Shown one piece after another: positions 58,907 through 64,000 of a DNA stretch of 64,000 nt (positions are counted from its first letter, which is position 1; every line of letters begins with the position of its first letter). A program made the translations under genes and the position numbers. Under the pieces are notes generated by a model, which ran no database searches, was not told the origin of the DNA, and saw only the letters and a program-made list of their open reading frames with translations. The stretch comes from an uncultured delta proteobacterium. Lineage in GTDB: Bacteria; Desulfobacterota; Desulfomonilia; Desulfomonilales; Desulfomonilaceae. Where the stretch lies: the NCBI GenBank assembly GCA_963789265.1, contig CAWBKB010000005.1:704001-768000 (forward strand). Reading direction: 5' to 3'.

Positions 58907-59349
58907 GGCACGGCCCTAGAAAGCTGCTGCGCAAGCTTGTCACCAGCGGGACCCTCCCGAATTCGTCGCGCCATGGTGCCTGGTGTGTCGACATATCTGA
59001 GAGGCTGCAAAGCAAAACGGCTTAGCAGGTCATACTGTTATAAGCCTGGGGCGCAATAGAGCAGAGGACGGACTTTCAGCGCAGCACTTCAAGTAGCGTA
59101 TGAGAGTGTTTAGATGTTGCCGCCTCCCACAGAAAGTAAGACGCGAAGGGGCCGAAGCTTCGGTACAAAAGGGGTCTATCTTGTGCTGCGCACACGCCCG
59201 TAAAGGGGAAATCCTTGATGATAGGAGGAATGGCTCTCAAACGGCGGCCTCTATTGACCATAATTTCGTGTTGCCGAAACAGCTTGACAAGCCCGACGAC
59301 CTAGATTAACAGGTCGCGTGGGAGAATGCGCTCTTCGGCGGAGGGAGGT

Positions 59350-60801
59350 ATGGGGTTTCTGCTGCCAGAATGGGAGATGGAATGGATCCTTGTCAACAAT
59401 CCCGCCCTTTTAGATCCTGGATCTGAAATTCTTAACCTCGAAGTAGTTGCCCAACAGTACGATTTGCCCCGGAGCGGAGGGTATGTGGACATCCTGTGCC
59501 GTTTCCCAGAGGGCTTGTTGGCAGTGGAACTGAAGAATGAATTTGTCGACGATTCCTCTGTTATCACACACCAGCTCAACAAGTATCTCGCGGACCTGTT
59601 GCACTACTCCAATAATTCCGAAGAAGTGAGATGTTTACTTGTCTCCACTCACGGGTTTTCACGACAGGTACAAGAGCTGGCCACTGCTCGTTCAGTGAGG
59701 TTGCAGACCATCTCTGTCGAGAACTTGCTCGAACAGGCCTGGCGTCTGAATACATCTGCGGATACTCTGTCGTCGGCAAAGGCGCGGCTTTTGCAGCGGC
59801 GTGTTGGATTGAAAACTTTGGACAAGGCCAAGGAACTCGTCTGCGGAAGACCTGATGCACGGTATCAACGGGATGTGGCCAGCATCGATCACTTCATAAG
59901 TTCCGGCAAGCACGACGCGTACGGATTGCGGCAGCTCGCTCGCGGTTTGAAGGAAGTGAGTCGTCGAGCCCCCATCATGGCACACAAAGTGTTCGATGAA
60001 GACGACGGAAATACCCTTAGTGGGGAGGAAGAAAAGTGGTTTTGGTTCTTCTATAGCGTGCTTGATAGACGAGCGAACGCTGCAACCTTCGTTAAGGCGA
60101 AAGAGGCACTTGAACGATGTAGACTTTTCCTGCCCCAAGAGCTCGTCCGGCTCGTGGAAACTACTTCGAATGCGGATGCAGTGGACCGCGTCTTTAGAAT
60201 TTTGCGAGATAGTGAGTTTCCTCTTGCCGCTGATTCTATCAGGCGCGACCAAGCCATGCCTTCGAGCATTGTGGATGCAGCTATGTATTTGAGCCGATTC
60301 GAGTTTTCGATGGACAATATGTTAGAATATTTTACTCAGGCCCTTTCCAGGTCCGAAGACTTAGCCGACACAATCATGGCACACTTGAGGAAGCACGTTT
60401 ATGGCGTAGGTCCGAGGATTGCGGCGCAGATCGTCCGAGGCTTGTGCCTCAAATCGGGCTGGAAGGTGACCATGTCTTCCCCGGTTCATCTGGAACAGTG
60501 CGGGTTTAACGAAACTTTCGCCGGCCCCGGCCGGTTAGGTCTCGTGTCCTCGCCGCAGAGTTACCGGAGGGAGCTGAAGCGTTTTGCGGACTCGTATCTC
60601 GGAGGGAACTGCGGTGTAATTAGCCATGCGCTCTGGTTCATCCGGAAGAGATTTTGTCTTCGGCCGAAGCGCTGTGATGAGTGCCCCGTGGCTGGCTTCT
60701 GCAATTATACTCGTTCTATGCTGCTGCGAAGCTACGACCGTAAGATGCTTGGCGCCCAACCCTCGTTGTTTTCGCGTATGGAGGAGGCCGTTCCAACCTG
60801 A
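59350..60801 (+). CDS. NucS/RecB-like PD-(D/E)xK nuclease fused to an HhH/[4Fe-4S] glycosylase-like domain
   Basis: E..NP..L, G.VDIL, AVELK, QLNKY motifs; YGVGPRIA hairpin; C-x5-C-x2-C-x5-C; RBS GGAGG 5 nt before ATG 59350. Confidence 0.8.
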   Translation: MGFLLPEWEMEWILVNNPALLDPGSEILNLEVVAQQYDLPRSGGYVDILCRFPEGLLAVELKNEFVDDSSVITHQLNKYLADLLHYSNNSEEVRCLLVSTHGFSRQVQELATARSVRLQTISVENLLEQAWRLNTSADTLSSAKARLLQRRVGLKTLDKAKELVCGRPDARYQRDVASIDHFISSGKHDAYGLRQLARGLKEVSRRAPIMAHKVFDEDDGNTLSGEEEKWFWFFYSVLDRRANAATFVKAKEALERCRLFLPQELVRLVETTSNADAVDRVFRILRDSEFPLAADSIRRDQAMPSSIVDAAMYLSRFEFSMDNMLEYFTQALSRSEDLADTIMAHLRKHVYGVGPRIAAQIVRGLCLKSGWKVTMSSPVHLEQCGFNETFAGPGRLGLVSSPQSYRRELKRFADSYLGGNCGVISHALWFIRKRFCLRPKRCDECPVAGFCNYTRSMLLRSYDRKMLGAQPSLFSRMEEAVPT

Positions 60802-62441
60802 TGGTCAAAAGAAGTCATCTAGACCGGGTACGAATTCTTGTCTTGTCAGACCTCCACTACGCAACTGACACTGGCAAATGGGAGGAAGTCTTTGCCACGG
60901 AGGGGACAAGGGAAACCGCTGCATACTCCTTCACCAACATTGAGCGCCTTCTCGGATTCATACTCAATGTGGTGAAAAGGGAATTGGACCACGTTATCAT
61001 ATTGGGAGATCTAACGCTTTTAGGCTCCCGAGACGACTTCAAGTTAGCCAAGGAGGACCTCCTCCGGTTTCAGGAGGAGCTCAAGAATGAAGGGATTACC
61101 ATAAACGCAGCCGAGGGAGAATTGGATCCCGCGATGTTCACTATCATCCCTGGCAACCACGATTTGAATGAGCCTACCGTCGGCAAGTGGACGCGCCGGC
61201 GGAGGATGGTAACTGGAGGTATGAGATCATTAATCAGCCGCGTCACGAAAAAGCCGATTGTGGCACCTCCGTCCAGCCCCGAAAAGATGTCGGAACTACT
61301 ACAGCTTTTCCGCGAATATTTTGGTGAAACCCTCTGGGATCGAAACCAGGAATCCAAGCAGTTTGGGAGTCTTGAGAAGATATTGCGCCATACTAACGTG
61401 TCACTCGTCCCATTAAATAGTTGTGTTCCGGCGCCAGTGCATCTTTTAGGAATAAACGCTCGTGGCCGAATAGATCAAGATCAAAGAGTGAAATATACAG
61501 AGTTGGGGCGCAATGGAAATGGCTCACGGCTCCGTATCGCTCTTGCCCATCATTTTCCACTTCCTATTCCGGTAAAACGCGATTCATTAACGGAGCCATC
61601 CCTGGAACTTGAAGATGCCAGTGACGTCATCCACTCTTTATACGGAGGTGCAAAATTCGCTGCTTTTTTGTGCGGACACAAGCACTCGGATTTCATTTGG
61701 TGCAACATCGCAGGAGTGCCGAAGGTAGACCGCTGTATGCCAATAATCTGTGTCGGTACGACTACCTTTCAGGCACCTCACCGAGATCACATTTGCTGCC
61801 TGATCGAATTGGAAGGTCGCAACAAGCTCAAGTTCAGCGATGAAAACACTTTGATCAAGGTCCACCATTATGAGTCCAGGAAACTTGCTGCCTCCCTCGT
61901 GAATACATTCGAGTTCTCGCCTGAGCCGGGCACACATAAAGAATTCACTAGTCTGACGGCCAGATGGATCAGAGAGGTGGAGAAAGCACCCGGGAGTAAG
62001 ATAAAACTCATAGACTTCAGATCTGAAGAATCCTGGAAGTTACTCAAGCCACTGCATCAAGAAACTGAGGCTGCAAGGCTGGAATTCAGTCGCTGGGGGA
62101 CTGTCTTCTACGGAGACACTCAAGGAGCGATTGAGGATTTTGAAATATTAGTAGGTGGCGAGTATCGTAAGGGTCCAATTTGCCTCATTTTCTCATGTAG
62201 GGCGCGGGATGGAGAGCCTGAACTAAAGATAAGCTGCAAAGAAAGTTCTAATCCAATGACTGATTTTGAATCGGTGTCACAAAACGAGTTTAGAAAAAAC
62301 TTCTTTCTGAATTATATTTCCCCGGATACCAAGCTACTGGTTTCTTTTAGATCAAGTCGTCTTGCCGAGGTGGTGCTCCATTGTGTCCTTGTTCTTGAAT
62401 TTCCCATAGTACGGTCGGAGACAGCCTATGACAATGCCTGA
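60801..62441 (+). CDS. Calcineurin-like metallophosphoesterase with an unknown C-terminal region
   Basis: SDLH, LGDLT, PGNHD, AHH, GHKH (complete metal-ligand set); TGATG overlap with the upstream gene. Confidence 0.88.
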   Translation: MVKRSHLDRVRILVLSDLHYATDTGKWEEVFATEGTRETAAYSFTNIERLLGFILNVVKRELDHVIILGDLTLLGSRDDFKLAKEDLLRFQEELKNEGITINAAEGELDPAMFTIIPGNHDLNEPTVGKWTRRRRMVTGGMRSLISRVTKKPIVAPPSSPEKMSELLQLFREYFGETLWDRNQESKQFGSLEKILRHTNVSLVPLNSCVPAPVHLLGINARGRIDQDQRVKYTELGRNGNGSRLRIALAHHFPLPIPVKRDSLTEPSLELEDASDVIHSLYGGAKFAAFLCGHKHSDFIWCNIAGVPKVDRCMPIICVGTTTFQAPHRDHICCLIELEGRNKLKFSDENTLIKVHHYESRKLAASLVNTFEFSPEPGTHKEFTSLTARWIREVEKAPGSKIKLIDFRSEESWKLLKPLHQETEAARLEFSRWGTVFYGDTQGAIEDFEILVGGEYRKGPICLIFSCRARDGEPELKISCKESSNPMTDFESVSQNEFRKNFFLNYISPDTKLLVSFRSSRLAEVVLHCVLVLEFPIVRSETAYDNA

Positions 62442-63483
62442 ACAGCCAGTTTATGCACCTGAGGAAGGTTTAGCGCCATTTGCGGGAAACACGATTACCG
62501 AAGTCTATAACACGCTCAAGAGATTTTTTGAAAATAAGAAAGATGCTACGGTATTGCACGTTCTCACCCTCGTCCGGTCTCCAGAATATCTTGTCCCGGA
62601 TGAACAGGTTATTTCTGCTCAAGAGGTTAAGGACGCCGTGCGCGGCCTCACTGATCAACCAGAACGAGAACAGTTCAAATTCAATCACTGGGATAGGATT
62701 TCGAGCTTTGGAAGACCTTTTTACAAAGTTGATCAGTTTGAAAACGCGGGAAAAGCTCTCTGCGAAGAATTAGAGAATAGGGAAGCAAGGACGTCGGCGA
62801 GTGCAGCGTTTGTAGTGACCGACCCTCTAAAAGACCTTGCCTCTAGGGATAGTGACACGCCGCCTCCATTTTTTTGCATGGGTCAATTTTGGCTAGACCA
62901 CCTAGGTCGGCTGGGGATAACGGGCGTTTATAGGCGGCAGGAGATGTCTTCATGGTGGGTTGTAAATATCTGGGAACTCGCCACTTACAGGGACAGGATG
63001 TGTGAGTACCTGAAGAGCTGTGGCTTCCAGGTCAGGGAGGGATCTGTGGCTACTCTGGCCGTTTTGGCTTACTGGCGAAGCAAGAAAAAATCTCCGGTTC
63101 CACTTCCCGATTTTGACAGACCCGAATTACGCGGCCAGATAGGGTCTTCATTGCTAGCGACCTTCGATGGTGACAGTGCGGCCGCCGGATCGTTGGAAAA
63201 GATGCTTCGGGAAAAGGCCAAAACGATAACAAAAAGCAATGCTCCGAGAGGTGGCCTCAAAACCTTGTTGGATCTTCTGTCTGCGGTCGAGTCGTATTTC
63301 AAGATGAAAAATGAGGAAATCTTTTATGAGCTGTTCCGTCAAGTGAAGGAAGCGGATCAGTATCATTCGCAATTCTCGCAGCCAGTCTTTCGAGCCATAA
63401 CAGTGGATAGCCTTGCCCAGTGTTACGAGAAACTAGCTGATACGTTCGAGACCCTCAAAGGAAAACTTGAGCAACAGCAATGA
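62428..63483 (+). CDS. Divergent thymidylate-synthase-fold protein
   Basis: HWDRI..., VDQFE...EEL, PPPFFCMGQF...L....VYRRQEM..WWVVNIWEL follow the order and spacing of ThyA core motifs; RBS GGAG, 14-nt overlap. Confidence 0.6.
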   Translation: MTMPEQPVYAPEEGLAPFAGNTITEVYNTLKRFFENKKDATVLHVLTLVRSPEYLVPDEQVISAQEVKDAVRGLTDQPEREQFKFNHWDRISSFGRPFYKVDQFENAGKALCEELENREARTSASAAFVVTDPLKDLASRDSDTPPPFFCMGQFWLDHLGRLGITGVYRRQEMSSWWVVNIWELATYRDRMCEYLKSCGFQVREGSVATLAVLAYWRSKKKSPVPLPDFDRPELRGQIGSSLLATFDGDSAAAGSLEKMLREKAKTITKSNAPRGGLKTLLDLLSAVESYFKMKNEEIFYELFRQVKEADQYHSQFSQPVFRAITVDSLAQCYEKLADTFETLKGKLEQQQ

Positions 63484-63520
63484 ACGTGAACAATATTGTA
63501 GAATGGTCATGGGAGGAAAA

Positions 63521-64000
63521 ATGGAAAAAACAACCATGCCCTTCGCGCGTGAACTGAAATTGGAGCTCACAAATGCGTGCGGCTTGGCCTGCGCCCATTG
63601 CTCGACAGATTCCGGTTCCACTGCATCTCTTTGCATTCCTACGGCTGATGCAATTCGAATAGTGTGCCAGTTTCGGGAGCTAGGTGGTGAGCGGCTCATT
63701 TTGACCGGTGGTGAGCCGCTTCAACATCCCGAGATTGATCTCATTGCTGCTTTTTCAAAGCAAATAGGTCTTCAAGTCGTGGTATATACGACCGGACTTG
63801 ATATCAATTCGGACGTATCCAGGGACAGACTGCTACACCTGGCCCCAATCATAGATGGATTTGTCTTCTGCCTACATGCCGCTGTACCTGATGTGCACGA
63901 CCACCTTACAGGGGTGCGTGGCAGTTTTGAAGCTACTGTTTCCGCCATCAGCCTTGTAATGAGATGGGGTAAGCCCGTCTGCATTCATCACGTACCACTT
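63521..64000 (+). CDS. Radical SAM protein (PqqE/NirJ-like), truncated by the window end
   Basis: Own translation: MEKTTMPFARELKLELTNACGLACAHCSTDSG...LTGGEPLQHP...YTTG...HDHLTGVRGSF; CxxxCxxC; RBS GGAGG; open to position 64000. Confidence 0.93.
   Translation, partial: MEKTTMPFARELKLELTNACGLACAHCSTDSGSTASLCIPTADAIRIVCQFRELGGERLILTGGEPLQHPEIDLIAAFSKQIGLQVVVYTTGLDINSDVSRDRLLHLAPIIDGFVFCLHAAVPDVHDHLTGVRGSFEATVSAISLVMRWGKPVCIHHVPL

Follow-up and report, generated by a model that had tools for sequence, protein, structure and literature searches.

A four-gene cassette combining a predicted nuclease-glycosylase fusion, a metallophosphoesterase, a thymidylate-synthase-like protein and a radical SAM enzyme in an uncultured Desulfomonilaceae bacterium: a candidate anti-phage system

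Four genes, termed here g1 to g4, lie at the end of a 64,000-nucleotide stretch of DNA (hereafter the window; G000:C5:704001-768000, G000 being the source genome) from an uncultured delta proteobacterium of the family Desulfomonilaceae. Their open reading frames (ORFs) are all on the plus strand and are predicted to encode a nuclease-glycosylase fusion, a calcineurin-like metallophosphoesterase, a protein with a thymidylate-synthase (TS) fold and a radical S-adenosylmethionine (SAM) enzyme. A 20-kb piece of the genome that runs past the end of the window is designated L002, and matches to known domains and systems were sought in NCBIfam 20.0, Pfam and PADLOC-DB 2.0.0 (2023). The genes and the features tied to them are as follows:

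59350..60801, plus strand: g1, 483 amino acids (aa); predicted NucS/EndoMS-type PD-(D/E)xK domain at about residues 6-124 and endonuclease III (EndoIII)-like HhH-GPD fold at about 187-459
60801..62441, plus strand: g2, 546 aa; calcineurin-like metallophosphoesterase at about 11-341, then a C-terminal region of about 200 aa
62428..63483, plus strand: g3, 351 aa; predicted TS fold at about 13-222 and helical C-terminal domain at 232-350
63521..64000 (to window-equivalent 64612), plus strand: g4, 363 aa; CxxxCxxC at C20/C24/C27; reduced SPASM-type C-terminal half
58915 to window-equivalent 64610, plus strand: cassette-sized insertion of 5,696 bp relative to the same-genus genome G401, holding g1-g4
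58915..59349, no strand assigned: non-coding leader, presumed promoter region, with a GGAGG box before the ATG at 59350

The original prediction described four co-oriented, tightly packed genes, and the junctions bear this out at base level. The last base of the g1 stop codon (TGA, 60799-60801) is also the first of the g2 ATG, which begins at 60801, producing a 1-nt overlap within TGATG at 60799-60803; g2 and g3 overlap by 14 nt, from the g3 ATG at 62428 to the end of the g2 stop at 62441; and 37 nt separate the end of the g3 stop (63483) from the g4 ATG at 63521, which follows a GGGAGG box. The start of g1 is most likely 59350, as judged from the GGAGG box and the 483-aa database form P0003. 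The operon was also expected to continue past the window, and retrieval of the downstream sequence showed that it does so for only 612 nt more, where g4 (363 aa from the ATG at 63521) reaches its stop at window-equivalent 64612. No fifth co-oriented gene was found for 1.2 kb 3' of g4 in L002.

Comparison with G401, the closest relative, shows that the four genes differ between the two genomes as a block. In that genome, the synteny of the upstream genes (PaaK-like, metallo-beta-lactamase (MBL) hydrolase and DUF3786) is conserved at 88-92% DNA identity, and homology stops at window position 58914, 8 nt past the DUF3786 stop, to restart at 64611-64680 (70 nt, 80% identity) directly behind the g4 stop. 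The last 610 bp of the insertion (L002:6001-6610) lie past the window, and G401 carries about 280 bp at the site, with a small ORF that is hicB-like when the DNA is read by eye. The cassette is thus a discrete accessory unit or indel, and the claim that the four genes form one set was upheld by this single 5.7-kb difference. The segment where homology resumes (L002:6611-6680, window-equivalent 64611-64680) is the 3' end of the hicB-like antitoxin-type ORF, which is intact in G401 (L117:5307-5656) and whose 5' part has been replaced by the cassette. Moreover, the DNA adjacent to DUF3786 in G401 continues into sequence that lies 39 kb off in G000 and in opposite orientation (G000:C5:762914 / ~802283), which puts the breakpoint of an inversion or other rearrangement at the site of the cassette. 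A profile of the g1 family had no match in six genomes of the same genus, six of the same family and eight of the same class (76-100% complete), and g3 had none in 400 other genomes of the phylum.

The first gene, g1, is predicted to encode a protein that combines an intact PD-(D/E)xK nuclease signature with an EndoIII-like fold. At the sequence level, the NCBIfam model of NucS/EndoMS (NF003270; PF01939 in Pfam) was matched over residues 15-118 (E 6.9e-7; 28.6 bits, cut-off 216; 130-223 of the model's 250 positions), and structural comparison of the AlphaFold model (mean pLDDT, a local confidence measure, 89.5) extended this considerably. Residues 6-124 align structurally with the catalytic domain of NucS/EndoMS (2vld; VIA Z 15.4, rmsd 1.8 Å, 107 residues), with the match beginning at chain residue 126, so that the N-terminal dimerisation and DNA-binding domain of NucS is missing from g1 and an EndoIII-like domain stands in its place. 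Residues 188-459 superpose on EndoIII (2abk; VIA Z 13.2, 206 of 211 residues), the cysteine loop being part of the match, and further fold matches at Z ~11 include MutY, OGG1, MagIII, ROS1 and queuosine-5'-phosphate glycosidase. Thus, g1 shares the whole fold and the cysteine loop with EndoIII; its C-terminal cluster reads C-x5-C-x2-C-x5-C, whereas the canonical EndoIII-type iron-sulfur (FeS) spacing is x6-x2-x5. In an alignment of 29 family members (A1), D47, E60, K62 and Q75, which make up the PD-(D/E)xK signature, are invariant, as are an N-terminal PEWE, a WFWxFYSVxDRRANA block, a YGVGxRI hairpin and C442, C445 and C451; the fourth cysteine of g1 is C436. Several searches with g1 returned nothing: no HhH-GPD family was matched at the sequence level (only a Pfam FeS motif, 13.5 bits against a cut-off of 20.5), the single sequence had 0 matches in the Protein Data Bank (PDB) at E up to 10, and the A1 profile produced only chance-level coiled-coil matches there. 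Similarly, none of 56 pattern matches among the 2.9 million viral contigs of IMG/VR was confirmed, and tblastn found no relative in plasmid records or in 50,697 phage records.

The second gene, g2, appears to encode an intact metallophosphoesterase that is distantly like DS-9A/MisA. It matches Pfam Metallophos (PF00149) at 32.1 bits, above the cut-off of 21.5, and keeps every metal-binding motif (DLH17, GDL69, GNHD118, HH250 and GHKH292). Its best NCBIfam match is the anti-phage phosphoesterase DS9_1 (NF053862; E 5.9e-18).

The third gene, g3, had no match in Pfam, where the superfamily model is PF00303, and no PDB sequence match at E up to 10, and its likeness to the archaeal-type thymidylate synthase TIGR03283 reached 25 bits against a cut-off of 174.55. 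Its model (pLDDT 89.5) was assigned to the ThyA fold by Foldseek (E 1.2e-7, probability 1.00), with VIA Z scores of 18.7 to 9iqu (the dCMP hydroxylase AfhB of phage HY126), 17.9 to MilA, 15-16 to many ThyA structures and 15.2 to the T4 dCMP hydroxymethylase. A g3 family profile aligns with MilA (E 1.1e-7) and with the ThyA motif 'PPCH..QF...YQRSGD', and this alignment places P147 at the Pro before the nucleophile and F148 at the Cys position (C146 of Escherichia coli). The remaining correspondences are R169 to R166, E172 to D169 and N180 to N177, with R169 and N180 invariant in the family at ThyA-like spacing. Among 42 aligned relatives, Cys occupies the catalytic position in just one, the others possessing F, Y, A, S, G or H. 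To our knowledge, every known active enzyme of the ThyA fold keeps the catalytic Cys. In PMC13326640, Cys146 is described as conserved in the flavin-dependent 5-hydroxy-dCMP synthases examined, and Asn at position 177 is reported to select dUMP and Asp to select dCMP. By alignment and model, then, g3 lacks the nucleophile and retains the phosphate-binding Arg and the uracil-type Asn; it is therefore most unlikely to modify C5, yet it is seemingly shaped for a uracil-type mononucleotide. The missing Cys, together with the absence of g3 from relatives, also led us to reject g3 as the host's housekeeping thymidylate synthase. With respect to that activity, ThyX (PF02511) was not found in G000 (95.6% complete), and one weak ThyA-family match, 23.5 bits and just under the cut-off, occurs in a 246-aa ORF (L004 = G000:C3:570517-573840).

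The ranking of MilA, a CMP hydroxymethylase, among the best structural and profile matches of g3 raises the idea of a small nucleoside natural-product cluster or salvage pathway. Radical SAM enzymes occur in peptidyl-nucleoside antibiotic pathways, and the HhH-GPD fold seen in g1 is also that of the queuine salvage enzyme (Z ~11), which is a nucleotide N-glycosidase. We consider such a role to have only a very slight chance, since the catalytic Cys common to MilA and ThyA is missing from g3, g1 has a full DNA-nuclease signature together with an FeS loop of the EndoIII type, the cassette is without transporter, ligase or tailoring genes, and homologous loci sit in defence-gene neighborhoods (see below).

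The fourth gene, g4, encodes what its motifs and family matches identify as a SPASM-related radical SAM enzyme. It matches Pfam Radical_SAM (PF04055) at 42-43.4 bits (cut-off 29.5), and C20, C24 and C27 are invariant in 12 family sequences (alignment A5). The nearest NCBIfam models are TIGR04053, NirJ2, AhbD and PqqE, the best at E 1.4e-22 and all far under their cut-offs, and PqqE is also matched in the PDB (6c8v, E 5.8e-10). Relatives of g4 possess a full seven-Cys SPASM domain at the C-terminus, as in L005 (TIGR04085, 58.8 bits; cut-off 27). In g4, the CxxCx5C portion has been lost and no Pfam SPASM match (PF13186) was obtained, and C243, C261 and C309 are kept. A likeness to prokaryotic viperins (pVip), radical SAM enzymes found beside nucleotide enzymes in defence-like contexts, was also seen, as g4 and its relatives match the PADLOC pVip model at E 2e-10 to 3e-16. 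For g4 (E 2.2e-10), this match covers residues 33-121 only, that is, the N-terminal radical SAM core, whereas the SPASM-type families score better, with NirJ2, PqqE, AhbD and MftC nearer to the g4 family (E down to 2e-39 for a relative); moreover, SPASM domains occur in g4 relatives and not in viperins. Judged on these matches, the likeness to viperin is generic. All four domain assignments of the original prediction were therefore sound, those of g2 and g4 through Pfam and NCBIfam and those of g1 and g3 through the folds of their models.

Evidence that g1 and g4 belong together comes from their relatives. Among the closest homologues of g1 (P0004-P0010), g2 (P0172-P0174) and g3 (P0001, P0045-P0049), two pairs come from contigs of equal length (3553 and 8068 bp). 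A word-index search found 40 homologues of g1, all unnamed and nearly all metagenomic, and a metagenome scan with the g1 family yielded 29 loci, which were regarded as testable when the N-terminal nuclease domain was included and at least 3 kb of flank was present. All 12 testable loci possess a g4-like radical SAM gene, 0.14-2.8 kb from the g1 homologue. Such a gene occurs in 14 of the 29 loci overall, the other two having a g1 homologue cut at the contig end; it was found in none of 12 loci with less than 3 kb of flank on both sides and in none of three loci that match only the HhH part and have long flanks. From this co-occurrence, g1 and the g4-type radical SAM enzyme appear to travel together. 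A dCTP-deaminase (DCD)-family gene is present in 15 of the 29 loci (TIGR02274, 71-88 bits against a cut-off of 92.8), and in most g1/g4 loci it occupies the slot that g2 and g3 fill in the window. The DCD-like proteins carry N-terminal extensions and match no PADLOC model at E <=0.01. Reportedly, dCTP-deaminase and other nucleotide-depleting defence genes were described by Tal et al. 2022; the window itself has no DCD-like gene, and it is the sister loci that supply the resemblance. One locus, L021, displays the order g1-g2-g3-g4 as in the window, followed by deoxynucleoside-kinase-like and DCD-like genes. This locus is divergent, with 38% identity for g1 and 27% for g2, and its g3-like protein is likewise without the catalytic Cys. 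As judged by fold, each variable partner of the g1 and radical SAM core is thus a pyrimidine-(deoxy)nucleotide-binding enzyme, and the DCD-like gene in the g2/g3 slot fits the idea of interchangeable nucleotide-pool modules placed on a constant core.

Neighbors of the g1 homologues include ThsB-TIR (L018, L013), SLATT (L013), DUF4062 (L017), an AlkZ-like glycosylase (L009), DUF4276 and a purine nucleoside phosphorylase (PNP)/UDP phosphorylase. The glycosylase, and the descent of both g1 folds from repair enzymes (EndoMS, EndoIII, MutY, OGG1), would suit a DNA-repair module. In such a module, an EndoIII/NucS-type enzyme would remove damaged pyrimidines, the radical SAM enzyme would reverse a lesion as spore photoproduct lyase does, and g2 and g3 would clean the nucleotide pool, metallophosphoesterases and ThyA-fold proteins both being nucleotide binders. 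We regard this as very unlikely. Repair genes are normally vertically inherited core genes, whereas this cassette is extremely patchy in its distribution (no g1 in the 20 relatives and no g3 in the 400 genomes of the phylum), is a small indel inside a toxin-antitoxin-type locus, and has homologous loci with the neighbors of defence islands.

A second conserved association emerged for g2 and g3. A HMMER scan of 1.84 billion representatives with g3 (E up to 1e-3) gave 128 matches, of which only six are close stand-alone homologues and 78 are proteins of 590-999 aa. In 75 of these 78, GNH[DE] occurs within the first 200 residues, and all eight long relatives scanned possess an N-terminal Metallophos and DS9_1-like region with a C-terminal TS-like domain. 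Matches of g2 and the fusions to NF053862 range from E 5.9e-18 to 1.2e-34. A profile built from 40 fusion proteins aligns g2 residues 11-341 with positions 3-339 and g3 residues 12-343 with positions 378-719 (E 2.4e-44), leaving about 200 residues of g2 beyond the match. These alignments make g2 and g3 the separate counterparts of the N- and C-terminal parts of a single protein, which many other bacteria encode as a fusion (at least 75 protein clusters), so the relevance of the arrangement would extend well beyond this genome. Fused relatives occur in genomes of Actinomycetota, Solirubrobacterales, Ramlibacter, Nitrospiraceae and Acidobacteriota, with 16 full-length copies among 71 loci, and they are accompanied by GmrSD, TIR/SLOG, SLATT, AbiEi, the TrwC relaxase and ImmA/IrrE and, in two loci, by a 5-hydroxymethyldeoxyuridine (5-hmdU) DNA kinase. 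The two conserved pairs, g1 with g4 and g2 with g3, would thus meet in the window cassette and in L021. Homologues were expected to co-occur in other genomes, and they do so as pairs (12 of 12 and 75 of 78, respectively) and, in L021, in the full order; wide conservation of the neighborhood was found for the pairs and not for the four-gene set, as none of the 71 fusion loci has g1 and most g1/g4 loci carry a DCD-like gene.

Fusions are also found on six rhizobial plasmids. On five of these, the fusion gene is divergent from, and beside, genes annotated as 'NTP pyrophosphohydrolase family protein' and 'uracil-DNA glycosylase', an observed pairing that provides an independent link of a glycosylase to the phosphoesterase/TS-like fusion. 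These five (L127, L128, L130, L131, L132) also have HTH/ImmA-IrrE, C1 peptidase, CHAT and S8 peptidase genes nearby. A 'thymidylate synthase' annotation adjoins the fusion on two of the six plasmids, and the L132 annotation divides the fusion into two genes (472 and 250 aa), as with g2 and g3. In the genome loci, a partner of about 190 aa with the motif 'HDRHYHPD' lies downstream of the fusion in 7 of 12 loci (L039-L047; L040:10145-10711, L042:10140-10715); it has no Pfam, NCBIfam or PADLOC match and no counterpart in g1-g4. In L040 and L042, the 5-hmdU DNA kinase follows (PF18723, E 1e-96 to 1e-99). The fusion and its 190-aa partner, with or without the kinase, seem to represent a candidate system in its own right, with two or three genes.

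The kinase brings to mind the pathways by which phages hypermodify pyrimidines. The original prediction had offered, as one possibility, that g2, g3 and g4 make a modified pyrimidine marking host DNA and that g1 cuts DNA without the mark. TS homologues, radical SAM enzymes, kinases and phosphoesterases do belong to phage hypermodification routes (in part PMC13326640), and several of the same parts are found here, namely a TS homologue, a phosphohydrolase, a nuclease, a radical SAM enzyme and, in L021, a kinase of the deoxynucleoside or dNMP type. L021, with this kinase and a DCD-like enzyme, resembles a nucleotide pathway, the 5-hmdU DNA kinase stands behind two fusion genes, the fold of g3 is common to the T4 dCMP hydroxymethylase and AfhB, and the nuclease signature of g1 is intact. 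Modification-restriction loses weight because g3 is without the Cys and the pathway genes are interchangeable. More specifically, the ThyA-like protein cannot readily be cast as a maker of the modified base when Phe stands at its Cys position and 41 of 42 relatives are likewise non-Cys, and its specificity residue is Asn, in contrast to the Asp of the dCMP-acting phage enzymes cited (PMC13326640). The substitution of a DCD-like gene for g2/g3 would be unusual for a fixed modification chemistry, and no transferase or polymerase-side function for genome-wide base replacement is present. Finally, such pathways are common in viruses, yet no relative of g1 was found in the 2.9 million viral contigs, and neither g1 nor g3 had a tblastn match in the 50,697 phage records. 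Self-marking is consequently improbable, and the other possibility raised at the outset, that the set detects and destroys nucleotides or DNA, fits the evidence better, even if it too is reached by inference.

Taken together, the reading that we favor, at about an even chance, is that the four genes constitute one accessory anti-phage or anti-mobile-element cassette of an unnamed type that acts on pyrimidine nucleotides and DNA. In this reading, g3 would act as a sensor of a uracil- or thymine-type deoxynucleoside monophosphate that appears on infection, such as dUMP, dTMP or a 5-substituted dUMP. In turn, g3 would control g2, which would then degrade nucleotides (dNTP/dNDP or NAD+), much as PUA controls the calcineurin-CE enzyme in PUA-Cal-HAD/Metis. 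Meanwhile, the glycosylase-like domain of g1 could find an unusual or misplaced pyrimidine in DNA, where the nuclease domain would cut, and g4 may work on the same nucleotide or DNA substrate or mature a partner, this being the weakest link of the scheme.

The sensor and effector roles of g3 and g2 are read by analogy with PUA-Cal-HAD, Metis (MisA-MisB) and DS-9, with which the cassette would have in common a branch of calcineurin-like metallophosphoesterases coupled to a nucleotide-binding-fold domain in an accessory or defence-island setting. In two reports, the PUA domain binds N6-methyl-dAMP (m6dAMP) from degraded host DNA, upon which the calcineurin-type enzyme collapses dNTP or NAD+ pools (10.64898/2026.01.15.699771; 10.1101/2025.11.05.686725), and another states that defence by DS-9A needs the metallophosphatase residues (PMC13092281). 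Here, a TS fold without Cys takes the place of the PUA sensor and is encoded by a separate gene, or is a C-terminal fusion elsewhere.

Another point of comparison is NTTI, a DefensePredictor system described as a validated anti-phage operon of a TS-fold protein and a 5-hmdU DNA kinase (PMC13092281, Table S8). Such a kinase also follows two g2/g3-fusion relatives (L040, L042). Compared by eye at one motif only, the NTTI protein in the table keeps Pro-Cys, whereas g3 has Pro-Phe, and no phosphoesterase fusion, radical SAM enzyme or nuclease-glycosylase is listed for NTTI. With regard to pVip, the L021 kinase matches VakA at 3.7e-8. That the combination is not a recognised named system was correctly foreseen, as far as PADLOC-DB 2.0.0 and NCBIfam 20.0 extend; no named system for the cassette was found in NCBIfam 20.0 or Pfam. 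Within the material searched, the set of g1, radical SAM enzyme and DCD-like protein also appears undescribed. The cassette would be a variant among the nucleotide-targeting defence systems, with a real chance that it is something further removed.

Several observations weigh against a single nucleotide-centred defence cassette. The full four-gene set was found in only one other locus, L021. Of the 71 genome loci with the g2/g3 fusion, none has a g1 match and a single one matches g4 weakly, so each half of the cassette may function without the other. The DS9_1 match of g2 is limited to the phosphoesterase core (model positions 189-446) and reaches 65 bits, far under the cut-off of 420. Neither a HAD nor a PUA domain was detected in g1-g4 by Pfam or NCBIfam; the sensor and the HAD partner that characterise PUA-Cal-HAD are thus absent. 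The cassette also differs from that system in possessing a nuclease-glycosylase and a radical SAM enzyme. The lack of a catalytic Cys in g3 does not prove a sensor role. The glycosylase-like domain of g1 may lack the catalytic Asp, and the Lys of lyase activity, that would follow its hairpin; when alignment A1 is read by eye, an invariant Glu382 lies near the expected place. SPASM radical SAM enzymes mostly act on peptides or cofactors, and a nucleotide-centred model leaves g4 unexplained. Among PADLOC-DB 2.0.0 models, a library of 2023 to which later systems do not belong, g1 matched only PDC-S41 (E 0.022), g2 and g3 matched nothing, and the fusions produced weak generic matches. Full-text literature searches found no description of the gene combination; they did not extend to Nicastro et al. 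2023 (NAR 51:11479), which reportedly defined calcineurin-CE systems and may describe g2/g3. Around the insertion, no tRNA, integrase or attachment site was found, and short repeats occur only at chance level; moreover, the block may have been lost in the G401 lineage rather than gained here. Finally, the cassette had been described as more AT-rich, which holds marginally: its GC content is 0.504, and 0.48 for g2 and g3, against 0.524 for the genome (sd 0.0155 in 5.7-kb windows), with 9.3% of 6016 windows as low or lower, and this is weak evidence of transfer.

Some of these points would follow if two independent systems simply happened to be adjacent, with g2 and g3 performing a self-sufficient nucleotide depletion, as their fused relatives seem to do, and g1 and g4 forming a separate two-gene system. 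The 71 fusion loci with their single weak g4-like match would be accounted for, as would the fact that most g1/g4 loci are without g2 and g3, and defence systems cluster, which makes adjacency weak evidence of joint function. We nevertheless hold this to be unlikely. In the window, g1 and g4 flank g2 and g3, reading frames overlap at the g1-g2 and g2-g3 junctions, the interleaved order recurs in the divergent L021, and the whole block is one indel. Moreover, the slot in nearly all other g1/g4 loci is filled by another pyrimidine-nucleotide enzyme, and plasmid-borne fusions have a different DNA glycosylase as their partner.

It is tempting to speculate further on how pool enzymes and a glycosylase could cooperate, and a rather doubtful scenario is nucleotide-pool poisoning coupled to base-excision restriction. 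Here, the radical SAM enzyme and the nucleotide enzymes (the phosphoesterase in this cassette, DCD-like elsewhere) would make or accumulate an abnormal uracil-type deoxynucleotide during infection. The TS domain without Cys would read this nucleotide, or could poison phage TS-family enzymes through mixed dimers. Subsequently, the abnormal nucleotide would enter replicating phage DNA, where the NucS-EndoIII fusion would find the base and cut both strands. If true, this would be a bacterial counterpart of the uracilation-based restriction of viruses in animals, with a radical SAM step that is without precedent, and the plasmid link of fusion and uracil-DNA glycosylase would represent the same principle in another, independent form.

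Returning to the sensor-effector cassette proposed above, its confirmation would have several consequences. A TS without Cys would become the second natural sensor for calcineurin-type nucleotide-degrading defence, and pyrimidine mononucleotides would join m6dAMP as danger signals. The NucS-EndoIII fusion, SPASM radical SAM enzyme and pyrimidine-nucleotide enzyme would constitute a recurrent unnamed set, which would give a radical SAM enzyme besides viperin a likely role in immunity. Moreover, pool enzymes are repeatedly paired with DNA glycosylases, which have two unrelated folds, and this suggests that bacteria may restrict phages via the base content of newly made DNA.

Among the sister g1 loci, six (L005, L009, L011, L012, L017, L024) encode a conserved 212-aa protein with the motifs GVTIRVS, HGGLH, QHTVDA and YFYEY (e.g., L005:7566-8204) and a 125-aa protein that is winged-helix-like by eye (e.g., L005:8267-8641). 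In L013, L016, L018, L019 and L028, a 104-aa protein replaces this pair. None of the three has a Pfam, NCBIfam or PADLOC match; read by eye from alignments A6-A8, without support from any tool, the 212-aa protein could be ATP-grasp-like, the 104-aa protein MazG-like and the 125-aa protein a winged helix. Proteins of 302-459 aa in L023, L027 and L033 share only the HhH/FeS half of g1, have other N-termini and lack a radical SAM gene; their contexts include an integrase in L023 and PCNA and PAPS reductase in L033.

The surroundings of the cassette agree with the earlier description of the preceding genes as metabolic and unrelated, the upstream flank consisting of the PaaK-like, MBL hydrolase and DUF3786 genes. 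The leader contains no convincing sigma-70 site, its promoter-like count being no higher than in shuffled sequence. A terminator-like hairpin lies at L002:6582-6604, at the 3' end of g4, and the count of terminators likewise does not exceed that of shuffles or chance. After the 1.2-kb gap, a class-I methyltransferase gene is followed farther on by MiaB-like, LolA, ABC and cysteinyl-tRNA synthetase genes on the opposite strand. Matching sequencing runs consisted of three soil-metagenome DNA runs from one study, with a best share of 0.42, and no RNA run was listed. Finally, the gap between cassette and methyltransferase holds a 120-aa ORF on the minus strand (L002:6862-7224; G000:C5:768865-769224) that matches no family and has paralogues elsewhere in G000, on C1 (52% identity) and C3 (37%), and it could represent a small gene, mobile or repeated.

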